A stretch of 64,000 bases of DNA, from the NCBI GenBank assembly GCA_964187785.1, contig OZ076409.1:71922001-71986000 (forward strand), read 5' to 3'. The stretch comes from Amphiscolops sp. MND2022. Taxonomy: Eukaryota. Below, one piece after another: positions 1-57,412 of this stretch. Position 1 is the first letter of the stretch. Each line of letters starts with the position of its first letter. The position numbers and the translations under genes are program-made. The notes below the pieces were generated by a model. It was given only the letters and a program-made list of their open reading frames with translations, did no database searches and was not told the origin of the DNA.

Positions 1-1496
1 GGTTGGGTCCTGCCGGACGTCAAATAGTGTGAAACATCCAGTAGGAAACGGCGACATAAATCAGCGATTTTAAAATTTAACCGTTAGAATTCGGACTTGG
101 AGTGCATGCGGCCCCAAAATGCCCATACGAATCGAAGTTCCTGCTGACGTTAAGCGATAAAAACATTTTATAAAAAGTTATGGCCCATTTTACGTTCAAC
201 TATAAGGGTAAAATGAGGAAAATTTTTACAAAGTCGCTGATAACTCAAAATACATTAACTTTTGGACTTTGACTGTGAAACAAGCTTAGAACCTTCATTT
301 CGTGGCTGTGGCATTGCACTGAACACAAAAGATGTAAAGTTTTTACATTTTTCGAAAATTCGACATTTTTGATTTTTTTTTCACTACTATCAGTACACTA
401 TATGTCAAAAACACCTCTGAAAAAAATTATTATTTGCTTAAAATTGGAAACCTTGGTATCCATGGTTTCTGTCGGAACCTACTCGCTGCCAAACACCCAA
501 CAGTTTGCATCCAATGTGAATTTAAAATTTTTTTCGAGGTCATAAGGGTTTCACAAGGTTTTCATAACTTAGTATTAAACTACAAACTGGTCATTTTCAA
601 CATAATATCTTTGTCGAGGCATGTCGGATATAGTCCTATTGCTCACGAACGGTCCTACTGGCAACGTAATAACCATTTATAGAAATGTAAAGTTATAAAA
701 AAATTTTTCACCCGGTCTTCAGTCATTTTTCAGTCATTCGGAACTTAACTTAGAAAAATTTCGACCAAAATATCCATTTTTTGTCAGGTCGAAAAATCAA
801 ATTCAGATTTTTAAGCAAAATTATTAACTCTGACGTAACCCATGGGGCCCATGATACTCAAAACAACGATTGACACTGGTATCAATGGCTCCAATAACAT
901 ATGAGTCGCGATAAGAGGTTATTTTGAGCATTACGTCTCAATTGAGGTAAAGATCTCGCAAGCCAGCGATCACTGTGAAATGTGATTTCATCAAAAATTT
1001 ACTCTTTTTTGTCAATCACTATGTGCACAGAATGCGTAGGGTGCGTTTCAGCACTATAATGAGGTTATTGAAGGCATCGAGTTGCTCAAGGGGTGGTATG
1101 AGACATTTTTGTCCCATATACTACTGTATTTTCCAAAATTTTTAGCCCAATATCTTCAAATACAAACTTGACAAAATACTTTCAACTACTTTATTCAAAG
1201 GTTACAATATAGATGAACACTGTGGTTGATCAGAAACTTTCATCTCTTTCGTTTTCCGAAATATTTCCCTTCGCATGTGTAATTCGTAGCAGAAAAAAAA
1301 ATCGAAACTGAAAAATACGCAATTTTGCTAATATAGAATCGCAATGATTGTGCCTAAAAACTCTTTAAACACTTCTAACGCAACCTTACGCACCCAAAAT
1401 GATCGAATATGCTATTCACAATGGTGACATGTGCTCTTTCTACGATCCTGGCTGGACAAGGTTTGCATATTTTTCAAGTACCTGTCAGCTAAATCT

Positions 1497-1546
1497 TGTG
1501 ATAGCCTTTTCAGTTGGCCTTGTGTCAACTTGGGAAGGCTATCACA
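1497..1546. repeat. Internal long palindrome P1 (all A units; family B at 4156-4198 and 7524-7567)
   Basis: TGTGATAGCCTT..AGTTG..CAACT..AAGGCTATCACA. Confidence 0.85.
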
Positions 1547-1836
1547 TCAAAAAACCATCAATAAAAATAATTTTTGTTTATTGGATCTTACAGTCGAAAC
1601 TTTTTTTCGTGATTCTATACTACCGTTAGTATATTTCATCAGGTCACCTTACGATTGCATTCAGTCTTTGATAAAAACCTATGAACTCAAAGTCACATTT
1701 ATATATTTTTTGCCCAACAAAATCATCAAAAATATCTAAAATACATAAAATAGAGTCTTTAACTTTTTTACGTTTCAAGTTTCTGCCGTTATTATGCCAA
1801 TCAACGTCCTAGAGCCACATCCTGCCACATACTGTA

Positions 1837-1946
1837 CAACGCCACATAGTGTTGCGACGTGCACAGTCTGTGGGCATGCCGAGGCATGCCCTTCGACGAC
1901 GTATGCCGAATACCGCGGGCCTACGCCCGCGCTCCCCGGCTAGGTG
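1837..1946 (+). other. Conserved right-end module (representative of 25 copies): direct repeats, palindrome, two hairpins, GCTAGGTG
   Basis: CAACGCCACAT..CRACGYSCAY..GTCYGT RGGCATGCCRAGGCATGCCY TTCGACGACG-like module present before every junction in all four families. Confidence 0.9.
1872..1891. promoter_or_regulatory. p53-family response-element match GGGCATGCCG AGGCATGCCC (representative; one per unit, e.g. 4658-4677, 5939-5958, 7912-7931, 16637-16656, 40572-40591, 56056-56075, 62101-62120)
   Basis: 19/20 match to RRRCWWGYYY x2 with zero spacer and CATG cores; binding is not demonstrated. Confidence 0.5.
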
Positions 1947-4734
1947 GCGGGGGGCTGTCCCCAATAGAATATAGTGAGGTAGGGTAGGGTTCCCTACCGA
2001 ACATTCAGTACTGAAAGACTCTTGTAGTATGAAAATTTTTCGATGTTTTGAGACCGATTTCGGATTCCACCCGTCAGAAGTTTATGATTTTTTGGCCCCC
2101 ACCCAGATTTTGGGCACTGATCGCCCCCCACCAGGTTCCATACCCGTGGTTTCGTTGTGACGGGTACACGAGCGACCGTTAGGGGTCAATCAGGGGGTAA
2201 AATTTATAAAAGTGTGAATAACTTTTCCCCCCGTCGTTTTAGCAGGTCCGGTCACTAGTAAAGGTTTGTTGGGCATCATGCAGTGGGTAAGGGGGGCCAA
2301 ACAAAAATTTTCTATCTTGCACCGTTACGGACTTGGCCCCCCGCCCAAACCGCTATTTTACCGGAAATTGCACTTTTTGACCGGGAAGGAGTCGTCTGAG
2401 CGCGGAGTCATTTGGTAATGTTTTGTAGAGCATCTGGAGACGTGGTGGGGGACATGTAGTTTGCCGACCCCAGTTTACCCCTCGGACGGGAAATGACCGT
2501 TATGTGAGTTTCAAAAATGCCCCCCTCCAATTTTCCCCGCAATTTCCGGTGTGAAGGAGTCGGAATAGCGTGTCGAGTGCTATATATCAAAAGTAGCTTT
2601 AAACAAGGACCTATCAGAAACATGTGGTTTGGGACCCTTTGAACGGACCCGTTAGCCGGAAATAGGGTGACCGCCTCCTCTTTTTGGTGGTAAAACCGTA
2701 AAACGGGCATTAAAGTGTAATTATCTCGTGAACGCGTGGAGCAATCGTGTCCATCACTCCTACAAGGTTTCATACCCATGACATGGTGCCTTCAGGGGGG
2801 CAAACAGATCAGCGCTATCTATCACCGTTACGGACTTTGCCCCCCAGCCTAACCGCTATATTACCGGAAATTGCCCTTTTTGACCGGGAAGGAGTCGTCT
2901 GAGAGTGGAGTCGTTAAGTAATGTTTTGTAGAGCATCTAGAGACGTGTTGGGGGACATGTAGTTTGCCGACCCCGGTTTACCCCTCGGACGGGAAATTAC
3001 CGTTATGTGAGTTTTAAAATTGACCCCCTTCAACTTTCCCCGTTATTTCCGATGTGAAGGAGTGAGGGTAGCGCGTCGGGTGTCATATATCAAAAGTAGG
3101 TTAAGACAAGGACCAACCGGGAACATGTTGTTTGGGACCCTCTGGCCCAACCCGTTAGCCGTTATAAGGGTGATCGCCTCCTTTTTTTACTGCTAAAACC
3201 GGAAAACGGGCATTGAGGGGTAAATATCTCGTGAACGCGTGGAGCAATCGTGTCCATCACTACTACAAGGTTTCATACCCATGATACGGTGCCTTCAGGG
3301 GGGAAAACAGATTACCGCTATATATCACCGTTACGGACTTGGCCCCCCAGCCTAACCGCTATGTGACCGGAAATGTCATTTTTTGAGCCAAAAGGGTTGG
3401 TCCCAGCGTGGGAACGTCAGGTAACTTTATGTAGAACTCAATGAGACGAGTTGGGGGATATAGTTTTAGTCACCCCCCGTTGACCCGTTGGACCGGAAAC
3501 GACCGTTATGTAGTGAAAAATGTTATTTTTATACTTTTTGAAGGCCATTTAGGGCAGGAAGTATCGGTAATATGTCTTTGGACAGTATACAATGAAAGTT
3601 TTGGTGTGAAACGAGCAATCTGAAATAACCGTTATTATGATTCGGAAGTCACACTAACAGCGAAAATGACCGTTATGTAGTGAAAATTTTTTTCACAATT
3701 TTTTTTATTTTCGATAGGTCCTTCAAGCCAGGAAGTAGCTGTATTAGGTCTTTGGTCACTTTATGATGATTGTGGTGTTGTGAGATGACCGTACGAACTT
3801 GACCGTTATAATGCCCCTGAAGTTGCGGCGGCACGAGAAATTTCAGAAAGTTTGTCTTTTCTGTGTTTTGTTGGAATAAACATGTAATTTCATCAAACCA
3901 AAGTGCATTCAGGGTGTCAGAAAGCTTCAAGAAAAGAATTTGACAGGAAACATGAGATGAGAAATAGGAAAATGCCACGGAAATCCAACCCGTTGGGAAG
4001 TAAAGATAATAAATTGGTTTGGAAGTGCCAATCGACGTGTAATTGCGGATCATAGCTACGATATTGTCTCTTTTGTTTCTTTTTGAAGACTTTGAACATT
4101 TTCACTTTATCAGCTTGAAGTTTCGACTCCATTAACTCAATAACCGTTACAATATGATAGCCCTCAAGTTGACCTTGTGTCAACTTGAAAGGGCTATCCT
4201 TTCACAACTGCGCAGCGACAGTGTGATTGAGTGTTTTTGTTATTATCCATAGCCAATTTGAACTTCAACAAAAGTTTAACCATAGTTAAAAAATTTCATA
4301 TGATTCTTTTAAAAGGATAAGTAAGAAACAAATGTTTGACAAAAAACTTTCAACCTTTAATTTGTGGACTGAATATCAGGAAAACCATGTCTCCTAACGT
4401 TGTTGGATGAAATTCAACATGATTCTTTTAATAGGATAACAAAGTTTGACAACATATTTTTTTATATTCTTTCGTTGGTGCTCTACATTTTAGGAAAACG
4501 AATTTTCCAACAAATATTGTTGGCTGATGCCTGTTCATAGTGGCTTGAAAATTTCACCAACTGTAATGCTTTTTATCAAAGGTGAAACCGCTCCTTACCG
4601 TCGCATAATGTAATTCAAGCCGACGCCCACATGCCAACATCAACGCCCACCGTCCGTAGGCATGCCGAGGCATGCCTTTCGACGACGTATGCCAAATCAC
4701 GCCCCTGCGAGGTCACTAAAGCGGTAGCGGCTAG
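1944..4734 (+). mobile_element. Unit 2, family B (2791 bp, GC-richer, internal 503-bp repeats)
   Basis: Bounded by two GCTAGGTG junctions; body unrelated to A but homologous to unit 4; conserved end modules present. Confidence 0.7.
2290..3520 (+). repeat. ~503-bp tandem repeat, ~2.4 copies (family B)
   Basis: ACCGTTACGGACTT anchor at 2321, 2824, 3327. Confidence 0.85.
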
Positions 4735-6012
4735 GTGGTCGTTAGCATGGGATTTTCTTTATGAGCGTAGTCCACTTTTTTTAGGCCGGGGTAGGGTCCC
4801 GGGCCGTTACCAATTTCTTACGGAGGAAAAATGTGAAAATCTGCGAGTTTAAAAAATTGGCCCGTACGATTTGGCTGAAAATTGGCATACAGCATCGTCT
4901 TGGTAAACAAATGACTTTGTCCTAGTGACATTTTGCCCAGAAAATTCAAAAAGTTGGTCAAATTGAAAATTTTTTGACCGTCTAAGGCTAAAATTTGACT
5001 TTTTCGCTTTTTTTGGTCAATTTCCTCAGAACTGGTTGATTTTGGTGAAGTAAGTCATAAGAAGTTATAAGGTCTGCAAATAGCATTCAATTGGCTTGCA
5101 TAATCAGATTTTGTCAAAAGTGTTTAGTTTTTTCAAAATTTCACACTTTTTTTTCATTTCAGTGTTTTTTGATACAATTTATTGAATTTTTACTAAGTTC
5201 CACTAAATATTTTTAAAATGTTTTTAAAAAACCTTTTTTTGCACGTTTTTGATGTTTTTTGCTCTCCCATATAGGTTTTCGCATACGGGGAACCTGAATC
5301 TGACAACGAAATAATTTTATTCCGCAGTTCAACTTACGCCATTTTTAATAGTGAAAAATCACTCATTTTCAATCTAACGAGTGAAAATATCAGAATTTAA
5401 AAACCTAAAGTTGAGTTTAAGGCGACTTACAGGTAGAAACAAATGCTCAGAAACAAACTGATTTCTTGTATTAGCTAAAGAAAGCCTTTAAAATTCTTTT
5501 TACTTTCTTTAAATCAAAATTCGACACTTTTCATGAAATTTGTCAGTGGAAAAAATTTATCATTTTTTAAATTAAAAACTTGCTTTGTTGGTCATTTCCG
5601 TTAGTCATTAGTAGCTGTGTAATGCTCCAAAGCCTTTCAAGTTCTTTTGACCCTATTTGAAAATTTTCGATACTGCATAATCAATCCGAGAGAACGAAAC
5701 AGTTGTGTACATTCCATCTCCCTCTTGGGGGAGATGAGAATGTACTTCCTAAAGTCCAGGTACTACAGATCATATTTGGTTTTATGCGACGCCCTTTAAG
5801 CTAGTGCATATAAATACAAGTTGTTTGGCTGGATTTTGCTTCTGACTTGACGTATACTGTACGTTTGGTACTGACAATACCCATCATTTACATAACAAAC
5901 GTCAACGCCACATACCCTTACCAACGCCCATAGTCCGTAGGCATGCCGAGGCATGCCTTTCGACGACGCGCGCCAAACACAAGCGCGCCCGCACTTTTGC
6001 GGTAGCGGCTAG
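4735..6012 (+). mobile_element. Unit 3, family C (1278 bp)
   Basis: Near-identical to unit 8 and homologous to unit 24; bounded by junction 8-mers. Confidence 0.75.
5707..5745. repeat. Internal long palindrome P2 (all C units and complete D units, e.g. 15742-15780, 39683-39721)
   Basis: GTACATTCCATCTCCC..GGGAGATGAGAATGTAC. Confidence 0.85.
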
Positions 6013-7985
6013 GTGCGGGGGGGAAACCCCAACAAAATTTTTGGAGGATTCGGGTAGGGTCCTGAATCCGAGTTCAGTGCTGCCAGCTTTCGTTAAGAAA
6101 ATTTGGATAGGATTCGGGATCTCGTGATCTAACCATAGGATTTTAAAGTTGGAGCGGCCCCCACCAGATTTTCCGAAAATTAGCGCCCCCCACCGGGTTC
6201 CAGCGTGATTGAAATATTTTGACGGGGTACACGGGCGACCGTTAGGGGTCATTTTGGGGGTAAAATTTATATCCGGTCGCATAACTTTTTTCCTGTTGGT
6301 TTAAAACTTTGGGACCCTGCTAAAAGTTTCTTGACCTTGTTGCAGTGGCTCCGGAGGTCCAAACCAAATTTTTCTATCTTGAAGCTATCTCCAAGTACCC
6401 CCCCGCCCAAAACGTTATTTTTCCGGAAACGCAGGTTTTTGACCCGGAAGGAGTCGTCGGAGCGCGGGGTCGTTAGGTGATGTATTGGAAACGGCCTTGA
6501 GACGAAGTGGGGGACATGCAGTTTGCCAACCCCAGTTTACCCCCCGGACGGGAAATGACCGTTATATGAGCGGGAAAAATGCCCCCCTCCACGTTTTACC
6601 GCTATTTCCGGTGTGAAGGAGTGGGAGTAGCGCGTCGGGTGCCATATATCAAAAGTAGGTTTAAACAAGGACCTATCGGAAACATGTGGTTTGGGACCCC
6701 CTGGACCAACCCGTTAGCGGGAAATGGGGCTTCCGCCTCCTTTTTTTACGGTTAAAAACGGAAAATGGGCATTGAGGGGTAAATATCTCGTGAACGCGTG
6801 GAGCTACGGTGTCCTTCACTACTACAAGGTTTCATACCCATGATATGGTGCCTTCAGGGGGGCAAACAGATTTCCGCTATCTATCACCGTTACGGACTTG
6901 GCCCCCCAGCCTAACCGTTAAGTGACCGGAAATGTCATATTTTGAGCCCAAAGGGTCGGTCTCAGCCAGGGAACGTTAGGTAACTTATTGTAGTACTCAT
7001 TGAGACGAGTTGGGGGACATAGTTTCAGTCACCCCCCGTTACCCCTTAGGACCGGAAATGACCGTTATGTGAGTAAAATTGCCATTTTTGTCCTATTTGA
7101 AGGGCATTTAGATGCGGAAGGAGTGGTAATAGGTGCTTGGACACTGTATGATGTAAGGGAGGACGTTAGGCGAGCATTCGGACATAACCGTTATGTTGAC
7201 CCTAAAGTCCCCCTGGTACCGTAAACGACCGGAAATGGTCAAATTTTGTGTCTATTGGGTACAAATGTTGGGTATTTTGTAGATAAAAGTATCTATTAGA
7301 TGTTTCGACGGTCTGCAGTAGTGAACATAGTCATGAAACCTTGTGGGGGGTAACGGTATATAGCACCGGAAGTCCAAACCGTTGGTGACAGGATAGGTTT
7401 TTTGGTTTTAAAATGTCTTTCGGCGTACCTTTGTCGACTATTAAGGACTATTTTTAAAAATTAAAGATTTTCCATATAGTTTCAGAGACTCCGAAACCTC
7501 AACCAACATAACCGTTACCTCATGATAGCCTTTCAAGTTGGCCTGGTGTCAACTTGGAAGGGCTATCCTTCAAAAATCGTCAATCGAGTGTGTTTTTGGG
7601 TATGTTTGTATCATTTTAGAATCAATTAGAGCTTCAAGAAAAGTTTCCCAACGACAAAAACTAATTCGTGAAGATTCCGTTACTAGAATTATAGTTAGCA
7701 AATTGTTGAGAAAAATGTTTTTTTTCCAAATTAAATGTGTCCTAAATGCCAGGAAACCTATTTAACTAACAAATGGTATTGATTGGAATGTATGTAACAG
7801 ATTTATAAAAGTTCAAATTGATTATTAAGTTTCATTATGGAAGCTGAAACGTAATATTTTAGTTTAATTAACGTCAACGCCACATACTTTTTATCAACGC
7901 CCACCGTCTGTGGGCATGCCGAGGCATGCCCTTCGACGACGTATACCAAATACATACCTAACGACGCCCGTACATTCCGGGCTAG
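6013..7985 (+). mobile_element. Unit 4, family B variant (1973 bp)
   Basis: Diverged homolog of unit 2 with one fewer 503-bp repeat and a different distal region. Confidence 0.7.
6360..7080 (+). repeat. ~503-bp tandem repeat, ~1.4 copies (family B variant)
   Basis: Homologous to the unit 2 repeat; boundaries approximate. Confidence 0.7.
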
Positions 7986-9969
7986 GTGGGCGGGGGTAAT
8001 TCCCCAACAAAAATTACGGCCGGCGGGTTGGGTCCTGCCGGACGTCAAATAGCAAAGAATATCTAGTAGGAAACGGCGACACAGAATCGCGATTTTTAAA
8101 TCTAACCACAATTTTTTGGACTTGGAGTGCATGCGGCCCTGAAATGCCCATACGAATCGAAGTTCCTGCTGACGTTAAGCGATTGAAATAATATATAAAA
8201 AGTTATGGCCCATTTTTCACTCACAAAGAAGGGTAAAATGAGGAAATTTTCAACAAAGTCGCTGATAACTCAAAATGTGTTAATTTTTGGACATTGACTG
8301 TGAAACAAGCTTGGAACCTTCATTTCGTGGCTGTGGCATTGCACTGAACACAAAAGATGTAAAGTTTTTACATTTTTTGAAAATTTGACATTTTTGAAAT
8401 TTTTTTCACTACTATCAGTACCCCATATGTCAAAAACGCCTCAGAAAAAAATTTTTATTTGCTTTAAATTGGAAACCTTGGTTTCCATGGTTTCTGTCGG
8501 AACCTACTCGCAGCCAAACACTCAACAGTTTGCATCCAATGTGAAAATAAAATTTTTTTCGGGGTCATAAGCGTTTCACAAGGATTTCTCAACTTAGTAT
8601 TAATTTACAAAATGGTCATTTTGAACACAATATTTTCATCGAGGCTTGTCGGCTATAGTCTTAATGTTATAGAACGGTCCCACTGGCAACGTAGGAACCA
8701 TTTATAGTAATAGAAAGTATTTAAAAAATATTTTCACCCGGTCTTCAGTCATTTTTCAGTCATTCGGAACTTAACTTAGAAAAATTTCGACCAAAATACC
8801 CATTTTTTGTCAGGTCGAAAATTCAAAATCAGATTTTTAAGCAAAATTATTAACTCTGACGTAACCCATGGGGCCCATGATACTCAAAACAACGATTGAC
8901 ACTGGTATCAATGGCTCCAATAACATATGAGTCGCGATAAGACGTTATTTTGAGCAATACGTCTCAATTGAGGTAAAGATCTCGCAAGCCAGCGATCACT
9001 GTGAAATGTGATTTCATAAAAAATTTACTCATTTTTGTCAATCACTATGTGCACAGAATGCGTAGGGTGCGTTTTAGCACTATAATGAGGTTTTTGAAGG
9101 CATCGAGTTGCTCAAAGGATGGTATGAGACATTTTTGTCCCATATACTACTGTATTTTCCAAAATTTTTAGCCCAATATCTGGAAATACAAACTTGACAA
9201 AATACTTTCAACTACTTTATTCAAAGGTTACAATATAGATGAACACTGTGGTTGATCAGAAACTTTCATCTCTTTCGTTTTCCGAAATATTTCCCTTCGC
9301 ATGTGTTACATTTGTAGCAGAAAAAAAATCGAAACTGAAAAATACGCTATTTTGCTAATATGGAATCGCAATGATTGTGCCTAAAAACTTTTTAAATACT
9401 TCTAACGCAACTGTACAGACCCAAAATGATTGAAAATGCCATTCACAATGCTGACATGTGCTCTTTCTACGATCCTAACTGGACAAGTTTTGCATATTTT
9501 TCAAGTACCTGTTAACTGAATCTCGTGATAGCCTTTTAAGTTGGCCTTGTGTCAACTTGGGAAGGCTATCACATCAAAAAATTTTCAACAAAAATACCTT
9601 TTGTTTATTGGAAATGACAGTCGATATATAATTTCGTGATTCTATACTACCGTTAGTACCTTCCATTAAGTCACCTGACGATTGCATTCAGTCTTTGATA
9701 AATACCTATGAACTCGAAGTCATATTTATAATTTTTGTGCTAAAAATAAACATCAAAATTATCCAATTTATTTAAAATTGAGTCTTTACCGTTTTTGTTT
9801 TACTTTTTCTACTGTTATTTAGGCCCATCAACTTCCTACAGCCACGCTCTCTGTCATTAGTACAACGCCACATAGTGTTGCGACGTGCACAGTCTGTGGG
9901 CATGCCGAGGCATGCCCTTCGACGACGTATGCCGAATACCGCGGGCCTACGCCCGCGCTCCCCGGCTAG
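7986..9969 (+). mobile_element. Unit 5, family A (1984 bp), head h2, tail t1
   Basis: Colinear with other A units; bounded by junctions. Confidence 0.75.
8020..8041 (+). other. Conserved left-end hairpin with T(A/T/C)GGGT loop (representative; also 1978-1998, 4784-4805, 6046-6069)
   Basis: Stem sequence differs by family but stays paired; loop conserved. Confidence 0.75.
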
Positions 9970-11954
9970 GTGGGCGGGGGTAATTCCCCAACAAAAATTA
10001 CGGCCGGCGGGTTGGGTCCTGCCGGACGTCAAATAGCAAAGAATATCTAGTAGGAAACGGCGACACAGAATCGCGATTTTTAAATCTAACCACAATTTTT
10101 TGGACTTGGAGTGCATGCGGCCCTAAAATGCCCATACGAATCGAAGTTCCTGCTGACGTTAAGCGATTGAAATAATATATAAAAAGTTATGGCCCATTTT
10201 TCACTCACAAAGAAGTGTAAAATGAGGAAATTTTTAACAAAGTCGCTGATAACTCAAAATGTGTTAATTTTTGGACATTGACTGTGAAACAAGCTTGGAA
10301 CCTTCATTTCGTGGCTGTGGCATTGCACTGAACACAAAAGATGTAAAGTTTTTACATTTTTTGAAAATTCGAAATTTTTGAAATTTTTTTCACTACTATC
10401 AGTACCCCATATGTCAAAAACGCCTCAGAAAAAATTTTTTATTTGCTTTAAATTGGAAACCTTGGTATCCATGGTTTCTGTCGGATCCTACTCACAGTCA
10501 AACACCCAACAGTTTGCATCCAATGTGGAATTAAAAATTTTTTCGGGGTCATAAGCGTTTCACAAGGATTTCTCAACTTAGTTTCAATTTACAAATTGGT
10601 CACATTGAACACATTATTTTCATCGAAGCGCGTCAGATACCGCCCTAAAGCTCACGAATGGTCCTACTGGCAACGTAGCAACCATTTATAGTAATATAAA
10701 AGATTAAAAAAATTTTTTCACCCGGTCTTCAGTCATTTTTCAGTCATTCGGAGCTTAACTTAGAAAAATTTCGACCAAAATACCCATTTTTTGTCAGGTC
10801 GAAAAATCAAATTCAGATTTTTAAGCAAAATTATTAACTCTGACGTAACTCATGGGGCCCATGATACTCAAAACAACGATTGACACTGGTATCAATGGCT
10901 CCAATAACATATGAGTCGCGATCGGACGTTATTTTGAGCAATACGTCTCAATTGAGGTAAAGATCTCGCAAGCCAGCGATCACTGTCAAATGTGATTTCA
11001 TCAAAAATTTACTCATTTTTGTAAATCATTATGTGCACAGAATGCGTAGGGTGCTTTTCAGCACTATAATGAGGTTTTTGAATGCATCGAGTTGCTCAAG
11101 GGGTGGTACGAGACATTTTTGTCCCATATACTACTGTATTTTCCAAAATTTTTAGCCCAATATCTGGAAATACAAACTTGACAAAAAACTTTCAACTACT
11201 TTATTCAAAGGTTACAATATAGATGAACACTGTGGTTGATCAGAAACTTTCATCTCTTTCGTTTTCCGAAATATTTTCCTTAGCATGTGTTATATATGTA
11301 TCAGAAAAAAAATCGAAACTGAAAAATACGCTATTTTGGTAATATAGAATCGCAATGATTGTGCCTAAAAACTCTTTAAACACTTCTAACGCGACCTTAC
11401 GCACCCAAAATGATCGAAAATGCTATTCACAATGGTGACATGTGCTCTTTCAACGATCCTGGCTGGACAAGGTTTGCATATTTTTCAAGTACCTGTCAGC
11501 TGAATCTTGTGATAGCCTTTTAAGTTGGCCTTGTGTCAACTTGGGAAGGCTATCACATCAAACAACCATCAACAAAAATAATTTTTGTTTATTGGATATT
11601 ACAGTTGATACCTTATTTCGTGATTCTATACTACCGTTAGTATATTCCATGAGGTCACCTTACGATTGCATTCAGACTTTGATGAAAACCTATGAACTCA
11701 AAGTCACATTTATATATTTTTTGCCCAAAAAAATCATCAAAAACATCTATTATATATAAAATTGAGTCTTTAACTTTTTTACGTTGCAAGTTTCTGCCGT
11801 TATTAGGCCAATCAACGTCCTAGAGCCACATCCTGCCACATACTGTACAACGCCACATAGTGTTGCGACGTGCACAGTCTGTGGGCATGCCGAGGCATGC
11901 CCTTCGACGACGTATGCCGAATACCGCGGGCCTATGCCCGCGCTCCCCGGCTAG
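9970..11954 (+). mobile_element. Unit 6, family A (1985 bp), head h2, tail t1
   Basis: Very similar to unit 12. Confidence 0.75.
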
Positions 11955-12769
11955 GTGGGCGGGGGTAATTCCCCAACTAAAAAATCGGCCGGCGGGTAGG
12001 GTCCTGCCGGCCGTCCAAAATCAAAATTATACTAGTAGAAAACGGCCGGTCAAACGAGCTATTTTTTTATTTAACCGTTAGAATTTGGGTTTAGATTGCA
12101 TGCGGCCATGAAATGGCCATACGAATCGAAGTTCCTGCTGACGATTTGCGATTGAAACACTTTATAAAAAGTTATGGCCAATTTGTCATTCACCTAGAAG
12201 GGCAAAATGAGGAAAATTTTAACAAAGTCGCTGATAACTCAAAATGTAATAATTTTTGGACTTTGACAGTGAAACAAGCTTGGAACTGTCATTTCGTGGC
12301 TGTGGCATTGCACTGAACACAAAAGATGTAAAGTTTTCACATTTTTTGAAAATTCGACATTTTTGAATTTTTTTCACTACTATCAGTACACTATATGTCA
12401 AAAACGCCTCTGAAAAAAATTTTTATTTGCTTAAAATTAGAAACCTTGGTATCCATGGTTTCCGTCAGTACCTAATCGCTGCCAAACGCTCAACAGTTTG
12501 CATCCAATGTGAAAATATAATTTTTTTCGAGGTCATAGGTGTTTCACAAGGATTTCTCAACTTAGTATCTATTTACAAATTGGTCATTTTGAACACATTA
12601 TTTTCATCGAAGCGTGTCAGATACCACCCTAATGCTCACAAATGGGCCTACTGGCAACGTTGGAACCATTTTTAGTAATAGAAAGTATTAAAAAAATATT
12701 TTCACCCGGTCTTCAGTCATTTTTCAGACATTCGGTACTTAACTTAGAAAAATTTCGCATCAAAAACCC

Positions 12770-13950
12770 ATATTTGGTAGGGTCGAAAATTGAAATTCAG
12801 TTTTTTATGCAAAATGATTAACTCTGACGTAACCAGTGGAGCCCATGATACTCAAAAACACGATTGGGACTGGTATCAGTGGCTCCAATAACATATGAGC
12901 CGCGATAAGACGTTATTCAGAGCAAACGCTCTAAATCGAAGTAAACATCTCTGAAGCCTGGGATCACAGTGAAATGTGATATCACCAAAAGTTTACTCTT
13001 TTTTGTCAATCACTATGTACACAGAGTGCGTAGGGTGAGTTTCAGGACTATAATGAGGTTTTTGAAGTAATCGCGCTGCTCAAGGGGTGGTATGAGACTA
13101 TTCTTTCCCATATACTACTACATTTCCATAAATTTGCAGTCCATTGTCTTGGAAAGATAACTTCACAAAAACAATTTTTCTACTCTATTCAGTTATTAGA
13201 ATAAAGTTGAACACTGTGGTTGATCAGAAATGCTCAATTCTTTTGGTTTTTAAAAAAATTCCTTCGCATTCGTTACATTTGTGGAAGGAAGGTTATCAGT
13301 AGCTCCAAAAAAAACGAAATTTAGCACGAACAGACATGCAACGATGCAAAGCAAAAACGTTTTTACAACTTCCGACGTCATTATTTTACCCAAGAAGTTC
13401 GAAAATATCATTCGCAATGCTGTCATTCGCTATATATACGATCGCGGTCAATTTACAAACATTTAGATTTCATTGTTCTGCTTGAAAACCAATTTTTGTC
13501 AGGTCGAAATTTTAAATTTTGCCTGGGTAGCAATACCCTTCACGCTGAAGTAAACAGTGGGGCCCAAGTTACTCAAAAACAAGAAAGAGACTGCTACAAT
13601 ATGTCCTAATAACATATGGACCACGATAGTACGTTTTTCACACAAAAAACTCTCATCCGAAGTAAATATGTTGAAAGCTTTTAATCACCGTGAGAAGTGA
13701 TTTCATCAAAAAATAACTCTTTTTTGTCAATCACTGTTTACACAGAATTTGTAAAGTTAGTTTGAGTCATGAAATGAGGCTTTACCGTAATATGGGTTGC
13801 TCAAGGTGTTATATAAGACAAAAACTTCCTCTTTACTACTAGCTTCTTCAAATATTTCAACCCTTTGTCACAATAAGTTAATATTCAAAATCTCTTTGAA
13901 ATGTATCTTTATGTTGGGGTGAAGTCTAAGAACAATAACTATGATCGAAG
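12770..13950 (+). repeat. Old ~720-bp-period internal duplication in family D
   Basis: Block TTT(G/T)GT..GGTCGAAA .. GCCCA..TACTCAAAAAC .. ATCAC.GTGA.A.GTGAT .. GCTCAAGG.GT occurs from ~12773 and again from ~13493. Confidence 0.75.
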
Positions 13951-14159
13951 AATGATAGTACTGGTGTTTGAACCATGTCCGGATGAACAAATCACAAAAT
14001 CATCAAAAAATTGTTCCCTTTTTTGGTTATTTTGGCAGTACTAAAAATGTTAGCTGATAAATAATTTTTTCGATGGCACCATTGGATTCCTCTCAAAAAG
14101 TTGGTTATATGACCTGTGTAATAACCCCGTATCTTTTCAATTTAAATATATTTAAAAAG

Positions 14160-15530
14160 CCAACTATTTTGACCAAAATCCTAAAAATCATACCATTTCC
14201 TAAAAATTTTCAAATGCACCCCATTTGACGTATAAGATAAGCACAGAAAACTATCATATACCGATCAACTCTACTCCCATTGTAGATTATTATAATTTTG
14301 TTTAGAATGAATTTTGATGGATATTAAAAAAATTTTGAACCCTCCAAAAATGGGCCAAAATTACACGAAAAAATTGACCTTAAAATACCAAAATGTCAAA
14401 AAATCATCAAAACCACGGCTTCTTGGGGTTCTATTAACTCCGCGTGGTCCACAGAGTATGCTAAAACAGGATTTACCCGTTTTTGAGCAATATGTGAAAA
14501 AGCCGACATTTTTGGGAAAGAAAAACATACCATTTCCTAAAAAAATTCAAATGCACGTCATTTGCCGTATTAGAATAGCACAGAAAACTATCACATACCA
14601 ATCAACTCTACTTTCATTGCAGATGAACAGAATTTTGTTTAGAATAAATTTTACCGGATAATAAAAAAAGTTGAATCCTTCAAAAATGGGCCAAAATTAC
14701 ACGAAAAAATGGACATTAAAAATTTAAAATGTCAAAAAATCATCAAAACAACAGCTTCTTGGGCTTCTATCAACTCCACGAGGTCCACAGAGTATGCTAA
14801 AACAGGTTTTACCCGTTTTTGAGCAATATGTGAAAAAGCCGACATTTTTGGGAAAGAAAAACATACCATTTCCTAAAAAAATTCAAATGCACGCCATTTG
14901 CCGTATGAAAATAGCACAGAAAACTATCACATACCAATCAACTCTACTTTCATTGCAGATGAACAGAATTTTGTTTAGAATAAATTTTACCGGATAATAA
15001 AAAAATTTGATTCCTTCTAAAATGGGCCAAAATTACACGAAAAAATGGACCTTAAAATTTTAAAATGTCAAAAAATCATCAAAACCACGGCTTCTTGTGG
15101 TTCTATCAACTCCACGTGGTCCACAGAGTATGCTTAACCCGGTTTTACCCATCTTTGAGCAAAATGTGAAAATACCGACATTTTTGGAAAAGAAAAACAT
15201 GCCATTTTCTAATAAATTTCAAATGCACGCCATTTGCTGTATGAGAATAACACAGAAAGCTGTCACATACCGATCAACTCTACTTCCATTGTAGATTATC
15301 AGAAGTTTGTTTAGAATAAATTTTGATGGATAATAAAAAAAATTGAATCCATCAAAAATGGGCCAAAATTACACGAAAAAATTGACCTTAAAATATCAAA
15401 ATGTCAAAAAATCATCAAAACCACAGTTTCTTGGCGTTCTATCAACTCCATATGATACCAAACCAGGTACTGCCAATCGTTTGAGTTATAATAAAAAAAC
15501 GTCTTTTTTGGCAAGAATTCCATACCATAA
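14160..15530 (+). repeat. 336-bp tandem repeat, ~4 copies (D1)
   Basis: CATRCCATTT anchor at 14189, 14526, 14862, 15198. Confidence 0.9.
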
Positions 15531-16714
15531 ATAATAATCATGTTCCATATAAGAAGCGAATCATTTCAGATATATACCCTGTTCATTTTTTTAATATTAC
15601 CGATTATTAATTTAATAGATGTTTTGAATGTGAGCTTCCTAAAAGGTTCAGGTGTGATGATACGTAAATAGAACCTTAGTTTCATCGAAATCTCAATTGA
15701 ATATGTCCAATCTTAACCATCAGATAACAAGAAACACTTAAGTACATTCCATCTCCCCATCGGGGGAGATGAGAATGTACTTTCGAGAAGCCAAATACGT
15801 CCAACATTCAAACTTTTGTAACTTTGTATGTAACTCCTGAAACGAAGAAGGAATAAAATTGTTTCTGGTACATACATGAGTCTTTACTTCAGCTTCTATT
15901 TCTGCTGAACAAAACCATTCGACTCTTTTGCCGGAGTTAAGATCGATTGTATTACCCAGTGAACAAAGGCATGACTGAAAACGTTTACTAATTTGTTCAT
16001 AATTTTCCGGCCTTCCGAAATGATGAAACGTCCACATAACTAAGATAGCAAGTGAATGACTGCGAAATGCACCTTATTAGATGAGGTAAATAACGTGTAA
16101 AACTCTCCTTTATCCTAACATGAGGTTGAGTAATGATCATTTGAGAATAGTTTGATATGTGAATACAATAGTATAAAACCAGTACATTTTATATGAATAA
16201 CGCCGTGGAAAGCGTTCAGAAAGGACAGTAGGCTTGTTTGGAACATGTATGTGTGGTGTCCCTTGGTGGCGTTCGCTTAGTGTATATGTCGAGGGGTATT
16301 CGAGTTGTTATGATAGAATTTACACACAAGTGTTTTGCTTTTTGGTTTTTTTAAAATGTCGTTAAGTACCTGCATTCTATCCCCTTCTCAGAGATGACGT
16401 GAAGTTACGTTTGCTAAATAAATGTCATCGAAAGATCACACTCCCGACGAAATTAACTATCTTAACACGTGTTTAGAATTTTGAATAAACAACCGTATAA
16501 GATTTTTATATTTCATTGAGTTTGATGGAGTCTTTTGTTCTTCTCACTACTATTTCAACCAATACACATATCCGTTACCATATCACATGTCTTCATTAGT
16601 ACAACGCCACATAGCGTTCCGACGCCCACAGTCTGTGGGCATGCCGAGGCATGCCCTTCGACGACGTATGGCAAATGGAGCCATGCCCGCCGTCTTTACG
16701 GCGGTAGCGGCTAG

Positions 16715-17992
16715 GTGGTCGTTAGCATGGGATTTTCTTTATGAGCGTAGTCCACTTTTTTTAGGCCGGGGTAGGGTCCCGGGCCGTTACCAATTTCTTA
16801 CGGAGGAAAAATGTGAAAATCTGCGAGTTTAAAAAATTGGCCCGTACGATTTGGCTGAAAATTGGCATACAGCATCGTCTTGGTAAACAAATGACTTTGT
16901 CCTAGTGACATTTTGCCCAGAAAATTCAAAAAGTTGGTCAAATTGAAAATTTTTTGACCGTCTAAGGCTAAAATTTGACTTTTTCGCTTTTTTTGGTCAA
17001 TTTCCTCAGAACTGGTTGATTTTGGTGAAGTAAGTCATAAGAGGTTATAAGGTCTGCAAATAGCCATCAATTGGCTTGCATAATCAGATTTTGTCAAAAG
17101 TGTTTAGTTTTTTCAAAATTTCACACTTTTTTTTCATTTCAGTGTTTTTTGATACAATTTATTGAATTTTTACTAAGTTCCACTAAATATTTTTAAAATG
17201 TTTTTAAAAAACCTTTTTTTGCACGTTTTTGATGTTTTTTGCTCTCCCATATAGGTTTTCGCATACGGGGAACCTGAATCTGACAACGAAATAATTTTAT
17301 TCCGCAGTTCAACTTACGCCATTTTTAATAGTGAAAAATCACTCATTTTCAATCTAACGAGTGAAAATATCAGAATTTAAAAACCTAAAGTTGAGTTTAA
17401 GGCGACTTACAGGTAGAAACAAATGCTCAGAAACAAACTGATTTCTTGTATTAGCTAAAGAAAGCCTTTAAAATTCTTTTTACTTTCTTTAAATCAAAAT
17501 TCGACACTTTTCATGAAAGTTGTCAGTGGAAAAAATTTATCATTTTTTAAATTAAAAACTTGCTTTGTTGGTCATTTCCGTTAGTCATTAGTAGCTGTGT
17601 AATGCTCCAAAGCCTTTCAAGTTCTTTTGACCCTATTTGAAAATTTTTGATACTGCATAATCAATCCGAGAGAACGAAACAGTTGTGTACATTCCATCTC
17701 CCTCTTGGGGGAGATGAGAATGTACTTCCTAAAGTCTAGGTACTACAGATCATATTTGGTTTTATGCGACGCCCTCTATGCTAGTGCATATAAATACAAG
17801 TTGTTTGGCTGGATTTTGCTTCTGACTTGACGTATACTGTACGTTTGGTACTGACAATACCCATCATTTACATAACAAACGTCAACGCCACATACCCTTA
17901 CCAACGCCCATAGTCCGTAGGCATGCCGAGGCATGCCTTTCGACGACGCGCGCCAAACACAAGCGCGCCCGCACTTTTGCGGTAGCGGCTAG
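16715..17992 (+). mobile_element. Unit 8, family C (1278 bp)
   Basis: Near-identical to unit 3. Confidence 0.75.
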
Positions 17993-19984
17993 GTGGGCGG
18001 GGGTAATTCCCCAACAAAAAAATCGGCCGGCGGGTCGGGTCCTGCCGGCCGTCCAAAATCAAAATCCTCCTAGTAGAAAACGGCATGTCAAACGAGCTAT
18101 TTTTTTATTTAACCATACGAATTTCACCATTTTTTGCATGCGGCCCTGAAATGGCCATACGAGACGAAGTTCCTGCTGACGTTTTGCGATGTAAATGTTT
18201 TATATAAAGTTATGGCCGATTTGTCATTCACCTAGAAGGGTAAAATGAGGAAAATTTTAACAAAGTCGCTGATAACTCAAAATGTGTTAATTTTTGGACT
18301 TTGACTGTGAAACAAGCTTGGAACCTTCATTTCGTGGCTGTGGCATTGCATTGAACACAAAAGATGTAAGGTTTTTACATTTTTTGAAAATTCGACATTT
18401 TTGAAAATTTTTTCACTACTATCAGTACCCCATATGTCAAAAACACCTCAGAAGAAAAGTTTTATTTGCTTTAAATTGAAAACCTTGGTAGCCATGGTTT
18501 CTGTCGGAACATACTCGCTGCCAAACACCCAACAGTTTGCATCCAGTGTGAATTTAAAAATTTTTTCGAGGTCTTAGGTGTTTCACAAGGATTTCTCAAC
18601 TTAGTATCAAATTACAAATTGGTCATTTTAAACACATTATTTTCATCGAAGCGTGTCAGATACCGCCCTAATGCTCACGAACGGGCCTACTGGCAACGTT
18701 GGAACAATTTATCGTAATAGAAAGTTTTAAAAAAAATTTTTCGCCCGGTCTTCAGTCATTTTTCACACATTCGGAACTTAACTTAGAAAAATTTCAACCG
18801 AAAAACCCATTTTTTGTCAGGTCGAAAATTCAAAGTCAGCTTTTTAAGCAAAATTATCAACTCTGACGTAACCAGTGGGGCCCATGATACTCAAAACAAC
18901 GATTGGGGTTGGTACCAATGGCTCCAATAACATATGAGTCGCGATAAGACGTTATTTTGAGCAATATGTCTCAATTGAGTTAAAGATCTCGCCAACCAGT
19001 GATCACTGTGAAATGTAAATTCAATAAAAATTTACTCATTTTCGTCAATCACCATGTGCACAGAGTGCGTAGGGTGAGTTCCAGCACTATAATGAGGTTT
19101 TTGAAGGCATCGGGTTGCTCAAGGGGTGGTATGAGACATTTTTTTCCTATATACTACTGTATTTTCCAAAAGTTTTAGCCCATTATCTGGAAAAACTAAC
19201 TTGACAAAATACTTTCAACAACTTTTTTCAAAGGTTACAATGTAGATGAACCCAGTGGTTGATCAAAAATTTTCATCTCTTTCGGTTTCCGAAATAATTC
19301 CCTTCGAATGTGTTACATTTGTAGCAGGAAAAAAACCGAAACTAAAAAATACGCGATTTTGCTGAGATAGAATCGCAATGGTTGCCCCTAAAATCTCTTT
19401 AAATACTTCTAACGCGACCTTATGGACCCAAAAAGATTGAAAATGCCATTCACAATGCTGACATGTGCTCTTTCGACGATCCTGGCTAGACAAGTTTTGC
19501 ATATTTTTCAAGTACCTGTTAACTGAATTTTGTGATAGCCTTTTAAGTTGGCCTTGTGTCAACTTGGGAAGGCTATCACATCAAAAAACTTTCATCAAAA
19601 ATACTTTTTGTTTATACAATAATGTAGTCGATAGTTATTTTCGTGATTTTACACTACCGTTAGTACCTTCCGCCAGGTCAGCTGACGATTGCATGCTGTC
19701 TTTGATAAAAACGTATGAACACCAAGAAAATTTTGTTGTATTTTTGTTGAAGAAAAGTATTAATAAATAATAAAAATATAATTCTAACCTTAAACAACTA
19801 TAAATTTGCTTAACCGTTATTAGTCCTACCACCTATCATCAGCCTATGCCATGGCCCGGTGATTAGTAGTACAACGCCACATAAAGTAGCGACGCCCACA
19901 GTCTGTGGGCATGCCGAGGCATGCCCTTCGACGACGTATGGCAATTTTAGCGTAGCCCGCGGTCACTACCGCGGTAGCAGCTAG
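17993..19984 (+). mobile_element. Unit 9, family A (1992 bp), head h4, tail t6
   Basis: Near-identical to unit 14. Confidence 0.75.
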
Positions 19985-21971
19985 GTGGGCGGGGTAATTC
20001 CCCAACAAAAATTACGGCCGGCGGGTTGGGTCCTGCCGGACGTTCAAATAGCGCGAAGCATCTAGTAGAAAACAAGGAGTCCTGAAACAGCGATTTTAAA
20101 ATTGAACCGTTAGAATTTGGTTTTAGATTGCATGCGGCCCTAAAATCCCCATACGAATGGAAGTTCCTGCTGGCGTTAAGCGATTGAAATAATATATAAA
20201 AAGTTATGGCCCATTTTTGGGTCACCGAGAAGGTCAAAATGAAGAAAATTTTAACTAAGTTGCTGATAACTCAAAATGTGTTAATTTTTGGACTTTGACT
20301 GTGAAACAAGCTTGGAACCTTCATTTCGTGGCTGTGGCATTGCACTGAACACAAAACATGTAAAGTTTTCACATTTTTTGAAAATTCGACATTTTTGAAT
20401 TTTTTTTCACTACTATCAGTACACTATATGTCAAAAACACCTGTGAAAAATTTTTTCATTTGCTTAAATTTAGAAACCTCGGTATCCATGGTTTCCGTCA
20501 GTACCTACTCGCTGCCAAACACTCAACAGTTTGCATCCAATGTGAAAATAAATTTTTTTTCGAGGTCTTAGGTGTTTCACAAGGATTTCTCAACTTAGTA
20601 TCAATTTACAAATTGGTCATTTTGAACACATTATTTTCATCGAAGCGTGTCATATACCGCCCTAATGCTCACGAACGGGCCTACTGGCAACGATGGAACC
20701 ATTTATAGTAATAAAAAGTTTTAAAAAAATTTTTTCACTCCGTCTTCAGTCATTTTACACACTTTCGGAACTTAACTTAGAAAAATTTCAACCAAAAACC
20801 CATTTTTTGTCAAGTCGAAAATTCAAATTCAGCTTTTTAAGCAAAATAAATAAATCTGACATAACCAGTGGGGCCCATGAAACTCAAAACCACGATTGAG
20901 ACTGGTATCAATGGCTCCAATAACATATGAGTCGCGATAAGACGCTATTTTGAGCAAAACATCTCAATTGATGTAAAGATCTCGCAAGCCAGCGATCACT
21001 GTGAAATGTGATTTCATCAAAAATTTACTCTTTTTTGTCAATCACTATGTGCACAGAATGCGTAGGGTGCGTTTCAGCACTATAATGAGGTTTTTGAAGG
21101 CATCGAGTTGCTCAAGGGGTGGTATGAGACATTTTTGTCCCATATACTACTGTAGTTTCCAAAATTTTTACCCCAATATCTGAAAATACAAACTTGACAA
21201 AATACTTTCAACTACTTTATTCAAAGGTTACAATATAGATGAACACTGTGGTTGATAAGAAACTTTCATCTCTTTCGTTTTCGGAAATATTTCCGTTCGC
21301 ATGTGTTACATTCATAGCAGAAAAAAAATCGAAACTGAAAATACGCTATTTTGCTGATATAGAATCGCAATGATTGTGCCTAAAAACTCTTTGAACACTT
21401 CTAACGCAACCTTACGCACCCAAAATGATCGAAAATGCTATTCACAATGGTGACATGTGCTCTTTCTACGATCCTGGCTGGACAAGGTTTGCATATTTTT
21501 CAAGTACCTGTCAGCTAAATCTTGTGATAGCCTTTTCAGTTGGCCTTGTGTCAACTTGGGAAGGCTATCACATCAAAAAACCATCAACAAAAATAATTTT
21601 TAAATATTGGATCTTACATTCGATACTTTTTTTCGTGATTCTATACTACCGTTAGTATATTTCATCAGGTCACCTTACGATTGCATTCAGTCTTTGATAA
21701 AAACCTATGAACTCAAAGTCACATTTATATATTTTTTTTGCCAGAAAATAACATCAAAAATATCTAAAATATATAAAATAGAGTCTTTAACATTTTTACG
21801 TTTCAAGTTTTTGCCGTTATTAGGCCAATCAACGTCCTAGAGCCACATCCTGCCACATACTGTACAACGCCACATAGTGTTGCGACGTGCACAGTCTGTG
21901 GGCATGCCGAGGCATGCCCTTCGACGACGTATGCCGAATACCGCGGGCCTACGCCCGCGCTCCCCGGCTAG
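19985..21971 (+). mobile_element. Unit 10, family A (1987 bp), head h5, tail t1
   Basis: Near-identical to unit 21. Confidence 0.75.
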
Positions 21972-56133: not shown

Positions 56134-57412
56134 GTGGTCGTTAGCATGGGATTTTCTTTATGAGCGTAGTCCACTTTTTTTAGGCCGGGGTAGGGTCCCG
56201 GGCCGTTACCAATTTCTTACGGAGGAAAAATGTGAAAATCTGCGAGTTTAAAAAATTGGCCCGTACGATTTGGCTGAAAATTGGCATACAGCATCGTCTT
56301 GGGAAACAAATGACTTTGTCCTAGTGTCATTTTGCCCAGAAAATTCAAAAAGTTGGTCAAATTGAAAATTTTTTGACCGTCTAAGGCAAAAATTTGACAT
56401 TTTCGCTTTTTTTGGCCAATTTTCTTAGAATTGGTTGATTTTGGTGCAGTGAGTCATAAGAGGTTATAAGGTCTGCAAGTAGCCATCAATCGGCTTGCAT
56501 AATCAGATTTTGTCAAAAGTGTTTAGTTTTTTCAAAAATTCACACTTTTTTTTTATTTCAGTGTTTTTTGATAATTTTTATTGAATTTTTTCTAAGTTTC
56601 ACTAAATTTTTTAAAAATGTTTTAAAACACTTTTTTTGCACGTTTTTGATGTTTTTCGCTCTCCCATATAGATTTTCGCATACGGGGAAACTGAATCTGG
56701 CAACGAAATAACTTTATTCTGCAGTTCAACTTTCGCCATTTTTAATTGTTGAAAAATCACTCATTTTCAACCTAACGAGTGAAAATATCAGAATTTAAAA
56801 ACATAAAGTTGAGTTTAAGGAGACTTACAGGTGGAAACAAATGCTCAGAAACAAATAGATTTCTTGTATTAGCCAAAGAAAGTCTTTAAAAATTCTTTTT
56901 ACTTTCTTTAAATCAAATTTCAACTATTTTTAAGAAATTTGGCAGTGAAAAAAAATTATAATTTTTAAATTAAAAAAAACTTGCTTTGTTGGTCATTTCC
57001 GTTTGTCATTATTAGCTGTGTAATTCACCAACACGTTTCAAGTTATTTTGACCCAATTTGAAAATTTTTGATACTGCATAATCTATCCGAGAGAACGAAA
57101 CAGTTGTGTACATTCCATCTCCCTCCTGGGGGAGATGAGAATGTACTTGCCAAAGTCCAGGTACTACAGACCATATTTGTTTTATGCGACGCCGTCTATA
57201 CTAATGCACATGAATACAAATTGTTTGTCTGAATTTTACTTCTGACTTGACGTATGCTGTACGTTTGGTACTGACAATACCCATCATATACATAACAAGC
57301 GTCAACGCCACATACCCTTACCAACGCCCATAGTCCGTAGGCATGCCGAGGCATGCCTTTCGACGACGCGCGCCAAACACAAGCGCGCCCGCACTTTTGC
57401 GGTAGCAGCTAG
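56134..57412 (+). mobile_element. Unit 24, family C (1279 bp), diverged copy
   Basis: Colinear with units 3/8, with many substitutions in the middle and conserved ends. Confidence 0.75.

Follow-up and report, generated by a model that had tools for sequence, protein, structure and literature searches.

Why do units of different families, joined head to tail in a single orientation, all begin with a hairpin? The question is raised by a 64,000-nucleotide stretch of the Amphiscolops sp. MND2022 genome (contig OZ076409.1, positions 71,922,001 to 71,986,000 of the forward strand; hereafter the window), which lies within a one-orientation array of Helitron-like units. The window holds 24 complete and 2 partial units, all on the + strand and joined at GCTAG|GTG, with 25 junctions (GCTAGGTG). 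An open reading frame (ORF) scan found no coding unit inside the window, the longest ORF there being 184 aa. We observed a hairpin at the 5′ end of every array unit, and it is likely that this hairpin is a + strand single-stranded DNA (ssDNA) signal read by a Rep(HUH)-PIF1-GIY-YIG protein.

The first-pass annotation of the window had claimed that the left ends of all families share a hairpin with a fixed T(A/T/C)GGGT loop, a co-varying stem and a strand-specific G·T pair. The hairpin itself was confirmed: the pattern GGGT[ATC]GGGTT?CC occurs 25 times on the + strand and never on the − strand, once after each of the 25 junctions, and the four hairpins that had been singled out were recovered where they had been placed (Table 1). 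Across the 24 complete units, the loop lies 58 nt from CTAG in C and 42 or 43 nt from it in A, B, B-variant and D, and the GGGG..CCCC mini-hairpin is present in the A/D, B and B-variant heads, both as described. Compared with dinucleotide shuffles, the + strand stem folded better in B (z −2.75), B-variant (z −2.91) and A (z −3.63); the C stem was not clearly better (z −1.45), and as originally written it contains a G·G mismatch that had gone unmentioned.

Heads from loci fetched genome-wide (labeled L) were clustered at 80% over 75 nt, giving 43 clusters; later counts used 41, after an L132-type dispersed repeat and one duplicate A variant had been dropped. At this scale the loop was not fixed. 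It reads (T/G)(A/T/C)GGG(N), with the first, second and sixth bases varying (TAGGGT 13, TAGGGC 8, GAGGGT 7, GAGGGG 5, GAGGGC 3, GAGGGA 3 and four others once each), and the only head sequence constant across clusters is GGG-NN-GGG-N-CC. This motif lies 40–47 nt from the DNA end in 39 of 43 clusters, and its distance to the ORF is not constant. The core was more conserved than the next 100 nt in three families (0.98 vs 0.82, 1.00 vs 0.86 and 0.86 vs 0.78), and 22 core positions of the B-variant hairpin were invariant across 16 distinct copies. When junctions were taken from tails alone (183 matches, duplicates from overlapping loci included), 35 of 37 head clusters carried the motif. Junction families without the hairpin had been named beforehand as evidence against a shared structure; the two clusters without the motif are such families as far as the loop goes, but both fold a hairpin at that place with another loop. 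One head type lacking the GGG-NN-GGG loop (L006:1563-type, starting GTGGAGGTT) has a T/A-armed hairpin with G·T pairs that favors the + strand (−9.4 vs −6.7 kcal/mol). The GGG..CCC mini-hairpin was found in 16 of 41 clusters; at that place the remainder fold either no hairpin or a weaker one that differs in sequence. A G-quadruplex was rejected as a general feature: no more than two G tracts are invariant, and it is just those 16 clusters that have the upstream GGG..CCC.

The claimed co-variation of the stem held for its outer part and not for the inner 3 bp. In the outer stem, a head's own arms formed 4.83 Watson-Crick pairs of 8, compared with a mean of 4.05 and a maximum of 4.51 for permuted arms (2000 permutations), and the folding energy was −8.19 kcal/mol with own arms vs −6.00 kcal/mol with swapped arms. 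The inner pairs (GC 41/41; GC 31/GU 10; GC 39/GU 2) showed no covariation, the sole change being C to T. RNAalifold on the plain alignment returned the three inner pairs only; the outer stem emerged with a shifting register.

The + strand folded better than the − strand in 37 of 43 head clusters; of the energy gap between the strands (−1.35 kcal/mol), half (−0.67) was also given by shuffles. The strand-specific G·T pair stood in its direction, with G·T outnumbering A·C by 25 to 4, but part of this excess is due to an invariant G: ten clusters carry G·T at one position where the G never varies. The clusters are also related to one another. The best strand evidence, stronger than the G·T pairs, is a tandem G·A/A·G flanked by two pairs, which we found in 22 of 41 clusters, compared with 1 for the mirror TC/TC and a mean of 0.9 (maximum 4) in shuffles. 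In B, for example, the stem is followed outward by a tandem G·A/A·G and then two more pairs, and clusters without GA/GA have Watson-Crick pairs in that register. The 22 came from a dedicated test; a gap-tolerant alignment of the arms recovered 8 tandem GA only and gave no excess of purine over pyrimidine mismatches (AG 22 vs CT 14, p 0.24). Tandem G·A pairs are stable in both DNA and RNA and are common in RNA. Overall, the hairpin is very probably functional on the + strand.

We next consider the ends that the hairpin accompanies. Elements begin with GTG, rarely GTA, and end with CTRG; the 3′ ends at 187 junctions were CTAG (171), CTGG (13), CTTG (2) and CTCG (1). Host and nested insertions alike follow the target rule CTNG^(G/A/T)T without duplication; the element boundary could be shifted by one G with the rule unchanged. 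Heads flanked by host DNA were preceded by CTTG, CTCG, CTAG or CTGG. The base at −3 is nearly always T, as a pattern with another base there gave 102 matches vs 53 in the control, and about 10 of 100 examined were judged true heads. After tails, T stood at +2 in 46 of 49 flanks and C at +1 in none of the 49, four of which turned out to be heads or rearrangements and not host. Paralogous empty sites confirmed the ends (L327/L124, L324, L057, L077, L140 and L145), and two loci with both ends and an empty paralogue (L324 and L327) had no target duplication. Dispersed solo copies also lack a duplicated core; one matches the B unit at 1944..4734 with 95.5% identity over its full length, between flanks CTTG| and |AT (L064), and another matches the B-variant unit at 6013..7985 with 91% identity (L078). 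The element's own junction, CTRG^GT, satisfies the target rule. Nested insertions were seen at internal CTTG/CTGG sites (L125, L122, L146 and L327), some of them less than 100 nt into a head, and at L327 a second insertion lies 13 nt after the first. A dispersed repeat (L132, L135 and L144) shows the head pattern after CTTG, always with identical upstream sequence; it is probably unrelated and was hence left out of the counts.

Structured sites had been proposed on both sides of the junction. This applies to the heads, where a hairpin is nearly always present, but tails vary: a 3′ hairpin is present in the window tails and absent or very weak in several of the other tail types among 33 folded. 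What many tails share is a 20-bp strand-symmetric palindrome (RGGCATGCCGAGGCATGCCY), found in 128 of 154 sampled units and in two states (A..T in 15, G..C in 113); it also occurs on several coding units. Being strand-symmetric, it may be a double-stranded protein site, and it has one mismatch in 20 to the p53-family consensus. Asymmetric terminal inverted repeats were not evident in 33 units (longest match between a unit's own ends 6.6 on average, maximum 9; 6.4 across units), and terminal direct repeats showed no excess.

Which protein could read such a signal? Searching the whole genome (1.07 Gb; the window starts at C1:71,922,001) with Pfam profiles, we found long open frames inside the window's own array. 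Ten coding units that we fetched, 12–17 kb in length, carry the junction and head hairpin seen in the window units, and they encode a Rep(HUH, Y2)-PIF1-GIY-YIG protein on the same (+) strand. Helitron_like_N as well as PIF1 was detected in 5 of 5 array proteins, together with HUH and YxxKY/YxxSY motifs; the C-terminal GIY-YIG was above the cut-off in two, weak in one and undetected in a further pair, in which it looks degenerate. In C1:70.45-76.49 Mb, 31 of 31 protein matches lie on the + strand, 25 of them in frames 2,200 aa long or longer. These arrays and ends are common to four protein lineages with a mutual identity of about 30%. These results support the HUH part of the earlier proposal that the + strand is read as folded ssDNA by HUH- or attC-type recombination. 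The strand asymmetry is supported as well; the attC part found no support. That the transposase reads the hairpin as ssDNA is, on balance, probable.

The array proteins have 344 representative relatives at E ≤ 1e-30, mostly unnamed; among 19 scanned, GIY-YIG was found in 14 and DUF6570 in none. In the PDB, the GIY-YIG region was matched best by a UPF0213 protein and by SLX1, each weakly (E 0.02), and single-sequence structure prediction of this region was unusable (predicted local distance difference test score 43.9). In an unrooted Rep+helicase tree, the clade (21 proteins), HLE1-type references (15) and HLE2-type references (27) each formed one split (Shimodaira-Hasegawa-like approximate likelihood ratio test, SH-aLRT, 100, 100 and 98.1), with the clade on a long stem (1.6). 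References were assigned by domains and motifs and not by Repbase, the HLE1 set being 15 relatives of one family of this genome, and P0059 and P0083 were left out of the first tree. The same genome also contains canonical HLE1-type frames and DUF6570-bearing HLE2-type frames (L168-L182), one with JAB and one with OTU. Several coding units (L033:6025-7170, L035:5687-6691, L048/49 and L038/39) have a second ORF of 280-390 aa downstream of RepHel; two copies (320-390 aa) were scanned and had no Pfam match. Scans guided by the protein turned up nothing in viral or prokaryotic contigs, and a loose terminus-pattern scan of metagenomes returned 120 stretches, of which 80 were checked by tblastn and blastn and none was related.

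We compared the array elements with known systems, whose descriptions are taken from parts of the cited sources. As in the Helitron superfamily, a Rep with HUH and two tyrosines is fused to PIF1, and there is no target duplication, as judged from two loci; the ends are almost certainly Helitron-like. The element is Helitron-like with an IS91-type target, and it is set apart from HLE1 by start, target and clade and from HLE2 by inverted repeats, DUF6570, motif 2 and clade. HLE1/Helraiser (PMC4778049, PMC5876387; PDB 7lcc) likewise has a RepHel with HUH and Y2, a CTRR-type 3′ end and no duplication. At the Helraiser junction, cutting is confined to the plus strand (PMC4778049, PMC5876387), and we assume the + strand and head-to-tail junction chemistry of the array elements from this case. 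However, HLE1 elements start with TC and target A^T, whereas the array elements start with GTG and target CTNG^(G/A/T)T; the latter also have a structured 5′ end, an inconstant 3′ hairpin and a C-terminal GIY-YIG. Array protein P0001 matches Helraiser in the helicase only (E 1e-05), and the array proteins fall outside the HLE1 clade on their separate split (SH-aLRT 100).

HLE2/Helentron elements (PMC3627910, PMC4067079, PMC11417382) share with the array elements a 5′ hairpin with compensatory changes and a large ORF with a C-terminal nuclease, and OTU occurs in some relatives of the array proteins. Their asymmetric inverted repeats (8–17 bp) and T^T or TTTT^T/C target were not found here, and DUF6570/AP endonuclease was detected in 0 of 5 array proteins and 0 of 19 relatives, with DUF6570 found in 6 of 6 other-type frames from the same genome. 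Of HLE2 motif 2, (V/I)ExQxRG(S/L)(P/L)HxH, the QxRG is absent in 21 of 21 clade members and present in 27 of 27 HLE2-type references. One HLE2 family from Sphagnum, HelenSM92, is described with a captured GIY-YIG, terminal inverted repeats and TT sites (PMC11417382), and by this description it differs from the array elements. IS91 (10.1101/2025.01.24.634351) is similar in its HUH transposase, a CTTG tetranucleotide target beside the origin end, the lack of duplication, a CTCG cut site at terIS, two subterminal palindromes at oriIS91 and an ori-ter circle junction. It differs in being prokaryotic, with a short transposase lacking a fused helicase (PMC10288648) and no megabase arrays mentioned in the parts of the sources used; the array elements, unlike IS91/ISCR, are PIF1-fused and reside in a 1.07-Gb eukaryotic genome. 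They also differ from Replitrons, which have a Y1 Rep without helicase and short terminal direct repeats (PMC10288648). A third Helitron clade in Paramecium (PMC13085455) also lies outside HLE1 and HLE2, with a strict orientation bias from sequence-specific insertion and non-autonomous derivatives; by description, to which this comparison is confined, it differs in telomeric-repeat targets, CCAA ends and 9–10 kb ORFs, and GIY is not mentioned in the part of the source used.

How far do the arrays extend, and how do they grow? Genome-wide, CTAG|GTGS followed by the loop motif occurs 4,694 times and CTBG|GTGS 648 times, compared with 0 and 1 for reversed-pattern controls; as exact matches, these are lower bounds, giving at least 5,342 heads. 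Preceded by CTAG, the main array begins at C1:70,454,838; it runs to 76,005,437, where TT follows. A second begins at C1:76,132,617, with heads up to 76,484,933. Some 40 head types are intermingled in the arrays, which keep to one orientation and extend for up to several million bases. One tail type was followed by GTGS in 3,300 of 3,364 cases (98%), by GTH in 29 and by non-G in 35, these three being the followers searched, with G then A/C/G outside the search. The short target motif does not explain this bias toward junctions: extrapolated from 170 kb of non-array DNA, CTNG^DT sites number about 5.6 million and CTRGGTG sites about 1.3e5. The 187 junctions comprised 127 tail-head combinations, and only 3 of 121 adjacent pairs were at least 97% alike. 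A twin at least 97% identical was found for 74 of 154 units, adjacent in 4 and in another sample in 57; neighbors of twins were themselves twins in 5 of 86 comparisons. Unit lengths were tight (77 of 154 near 1.3 kb and 39 of 154 near 2.0 kb). Mixed junctions, rare near-identical neighbors and distant twins fit insertion of one unit at a time, with some local effect, better than they fit concatemers or unequal exchange. Precise head-to-tail joints between dissimilar Helitrons, made by consecutive insertions, have been reported in maize (PMC2267711) and Fusarium (PMC5148889), where the sources describe isolated pairs or triplets; the present arrays hold thousands of units and about 40 head types, with about 98% of one tail type so placed. 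Local Helitron-like expansions are also known in cnidarians.

By analogy with Helraiser and IS91, Rep would nick the + strand at CTNG^GTG and attach to the 5′ G, with the strand then peeled off; a second cut would fall at the tail CTRG, and the unit would be joined into a new CTNG^ site. The head with its two hairpins may act like oriIS. Because CTRG^GT fits the target rule, insertion at an element's own junction would be harmless to tail and head, leaving both intact and adding one junction. Since a short target cannot explain the junction bias, an extra cue is needed, for which the head hairpin, located immediately downstream of the target nick, is the foremost candidate; that the hairpin serves target choice in this way is nearly an even call, leaning slightly to the doubtful side. 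Opening or cutting of the target may be aided by the GIY-YIG domain, which is weakly SLX1-like; since it looks degenerate in some lineages, it is probably not essential in cis. We tentatively propose an undescribed, widespread major clade that combines an IS91-like CTNG target with a shared ssDNA hairpin code, conceivably the GGG-NN-GGG loop plus sheared G·A pairs, and that homes to the junctions of any member across lineages about 30% identical, building multi-megabase safe-harbor arrays.

Another reading, which we hold to be plausible though short of probable, is that the hairpin is a donor origin only, and that arrays arise from short-motif targeting combined with hopping to nearby sites, a preference for certain chromatin or the removal of dispersed copies. 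The left end of Helraiser is required for its transposition (PMC4778049), insertions into sites without a hairpin exist here, and families form patches along the array. Against this, insertions hit the exact junction base and unit lengths stay tight, despite about 5 CTNG^DT sites per kb of unit (background rate); twins lie mostly in distant samples, and no local hopping was seen with Helraiser (PMC4778049).

Several observations weigh against the explanation proposed here. Both members were of one family in 39 of 121 adjacent pairs; local amplification or hopping therefore plays a part, and selection against dispersed copies could inflate the 98% figure. The two tail-defined head clusters without the GGG-NN-GGG loop still occur at junctions. 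A tail of the array elements was also seen at the GCTAG^GTC junction of another tandem repeat without the motif (L319), and the empty sites at L122, L129 and L146 break the +1/+2 rule. In addition, the hairpin strand is also the ORF sense strand, head clusters are mutually related and their counts are not independent events, and the array was sampled in 10-kb stretches, about 0.4 Mb of about 6 Mb being read. The other tandem repeat, about 1.2 kb in length, joins at GCTAG|GTCTTT and has a hairpin of its own (L170:8503-9738, L319:2862, L052 and L063), and it may represent a sister lineage whose head code differs.

It is unlikely that the motif is instead an RNA structure at a transcript 5′ end or a pair of protein sites on double-stranded DNA (CGAG direct repeats, G tracts). 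Such a role would suit the coincidence with the ORF sense strand, the frequency of tandem G·A pairs in RNA, the direct repeat that GA forms when present on both arms, and an invariant part that is sequence and not covarying pairs. However, clusters without GA/GA have Watson-Crick pairs at the same register, the motif keeps its distance from the DNA end and not from the ORF, and an Rfam search of window positions 1-18,000 gave one chance-level match (E 0.89), not near the heads.

Rolling-circle concatemers or unequal-exchange satellite expansions that later diverged, with the hairpin merely inherited, are improbable as the source of the arrays. Tandem Helitron arrays in plants have been ascribed to rolling-circle concatemers (PMC11934779, PMC5876387), and tail read-through could copy several units together, but the diversity of tail-head combinations, the rarity of near-identical neighbors, the mismatched neighbors of twins, the four divergent protein lineages with common arrays and ends, and a hairpin more conserved than adjoining DNA all argue against it. 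An array of integron-like cassettes, combining attC-type folded sites with a tyrosine recombinase, would share the mixed units in one orientation, the short common core and the strand-asymmetric hairpins, but it can practically be dismissed given an HUH-helicase encoded in cis, solo copies without a duplicated core and, in the genome search, only 4 PF00589 matches (C3 and C1368; a lower bound), none in the array.

In the prevailing view, Helitrons select little more than a dinucleotide as their target. In the present arrays, thousands of copies, with about 40 head types among them, are placed at a single exact base within each other's junctions. Should the hairpin be the cue, it would offer a helicase-containing ssDNA transposase a portable landing pad, and the elements would represent a structure-guided, self-targeting eukaryotic DNA transposon, with a route to megabase repeat blocks needing neither concatemers nor unequal exchange. 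Tools seeking TC...CTRR or inverted repeats would miss the ends of this clade. We found no description of a Rep-PIF1-GIY-YIG clade with these ends in a partial, mostly abstract-level coverage of the literature; HELIANO (PMC11417382) reports some unclassified clusters, which, like its Fig. S8, may be relevant to this point.

Table 1. Positions of the units, junction, hairpins and palindromes in the window
Feature	Position	Strand	Remarks
Whole window	1..64000	+	Array part; junction and unit survey
Junction CTAG|GTG, A unit 3′ end / B unit 5′ end	1940..1946	+	Putative nick and insertion site
Family B non-autonomous unit	1944..4734	+	2,791 bp; internal ~500-bp repeats
B head mini-hairpin GGGG-CTGT-CCCC	1951..1962	+	Folding
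B main head hairpin	1974..2002	+	Folding; 7-bp stem 1978-1998, loop TAGGGTT
B long internal palindrome	4156..4198	strand-less	~580 bp before B end; present in B-variant and some A units too
B tail subterminal palindrome RGGCATGCCGAGGCATGCCY	4658..4677	strand-less	
Family C non-autonomous unit	4735..6012	+	1,278 bp
C main head hairpin	4784..4805	+	Loop at +58; one G·G mismatch; weakest of four
C tail subterminal palindrome	5939..5958	strand-less	
B-variant non-autonomous unit	6013..7985	+	1,973 bp
B-variant head mini-hairpin	6019..6030	+	Folding
B-variant main head hairpin	6044..6071	+	Stem 6046-6069 with G·T; GA/GA abutting
B-variant long internal palindrome	7524..7567	strand-less	
B-variant tail subterminal palindrome	7912..7931	strand-less	
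Family A non-autonomous unit	7986..9969	+	About 1,985 bp; the window's commonest
A/D head mini-hairpin	7993..8005	+	Folding
A/D main head hairpin	8016..8045	+	Stem 8020-8041 with G·T; loop T(T/A/C)GGGT
Family D non-autonomous unit	11955..16714	+	4,760 bp; first 1.5 kb A-like; internal 336-bp repeats

Further arrays were seen at C2:102.0-103.9 Mb, C3:2.4-3.9 Mb, C1:23.96-24.02 Mb, C1:3.49-3.64 Mb and C1:37.9-38.2 Mb, three of which contain adjacent blocks in opposite orientation; one inverted fragment was seen in the sampled main array (L311). At one junction, GTGGGCG and CGCCCAC match across the joint, which is not a rule within units. Lastly, a 43-bp interrupted palindrome lies 440–580 bp before the end of the otherwise unrelated A, B and B-variant units (4156-4198, 7524-7567 and 9527-9570), and it was matched in 11 of the 24 window units.

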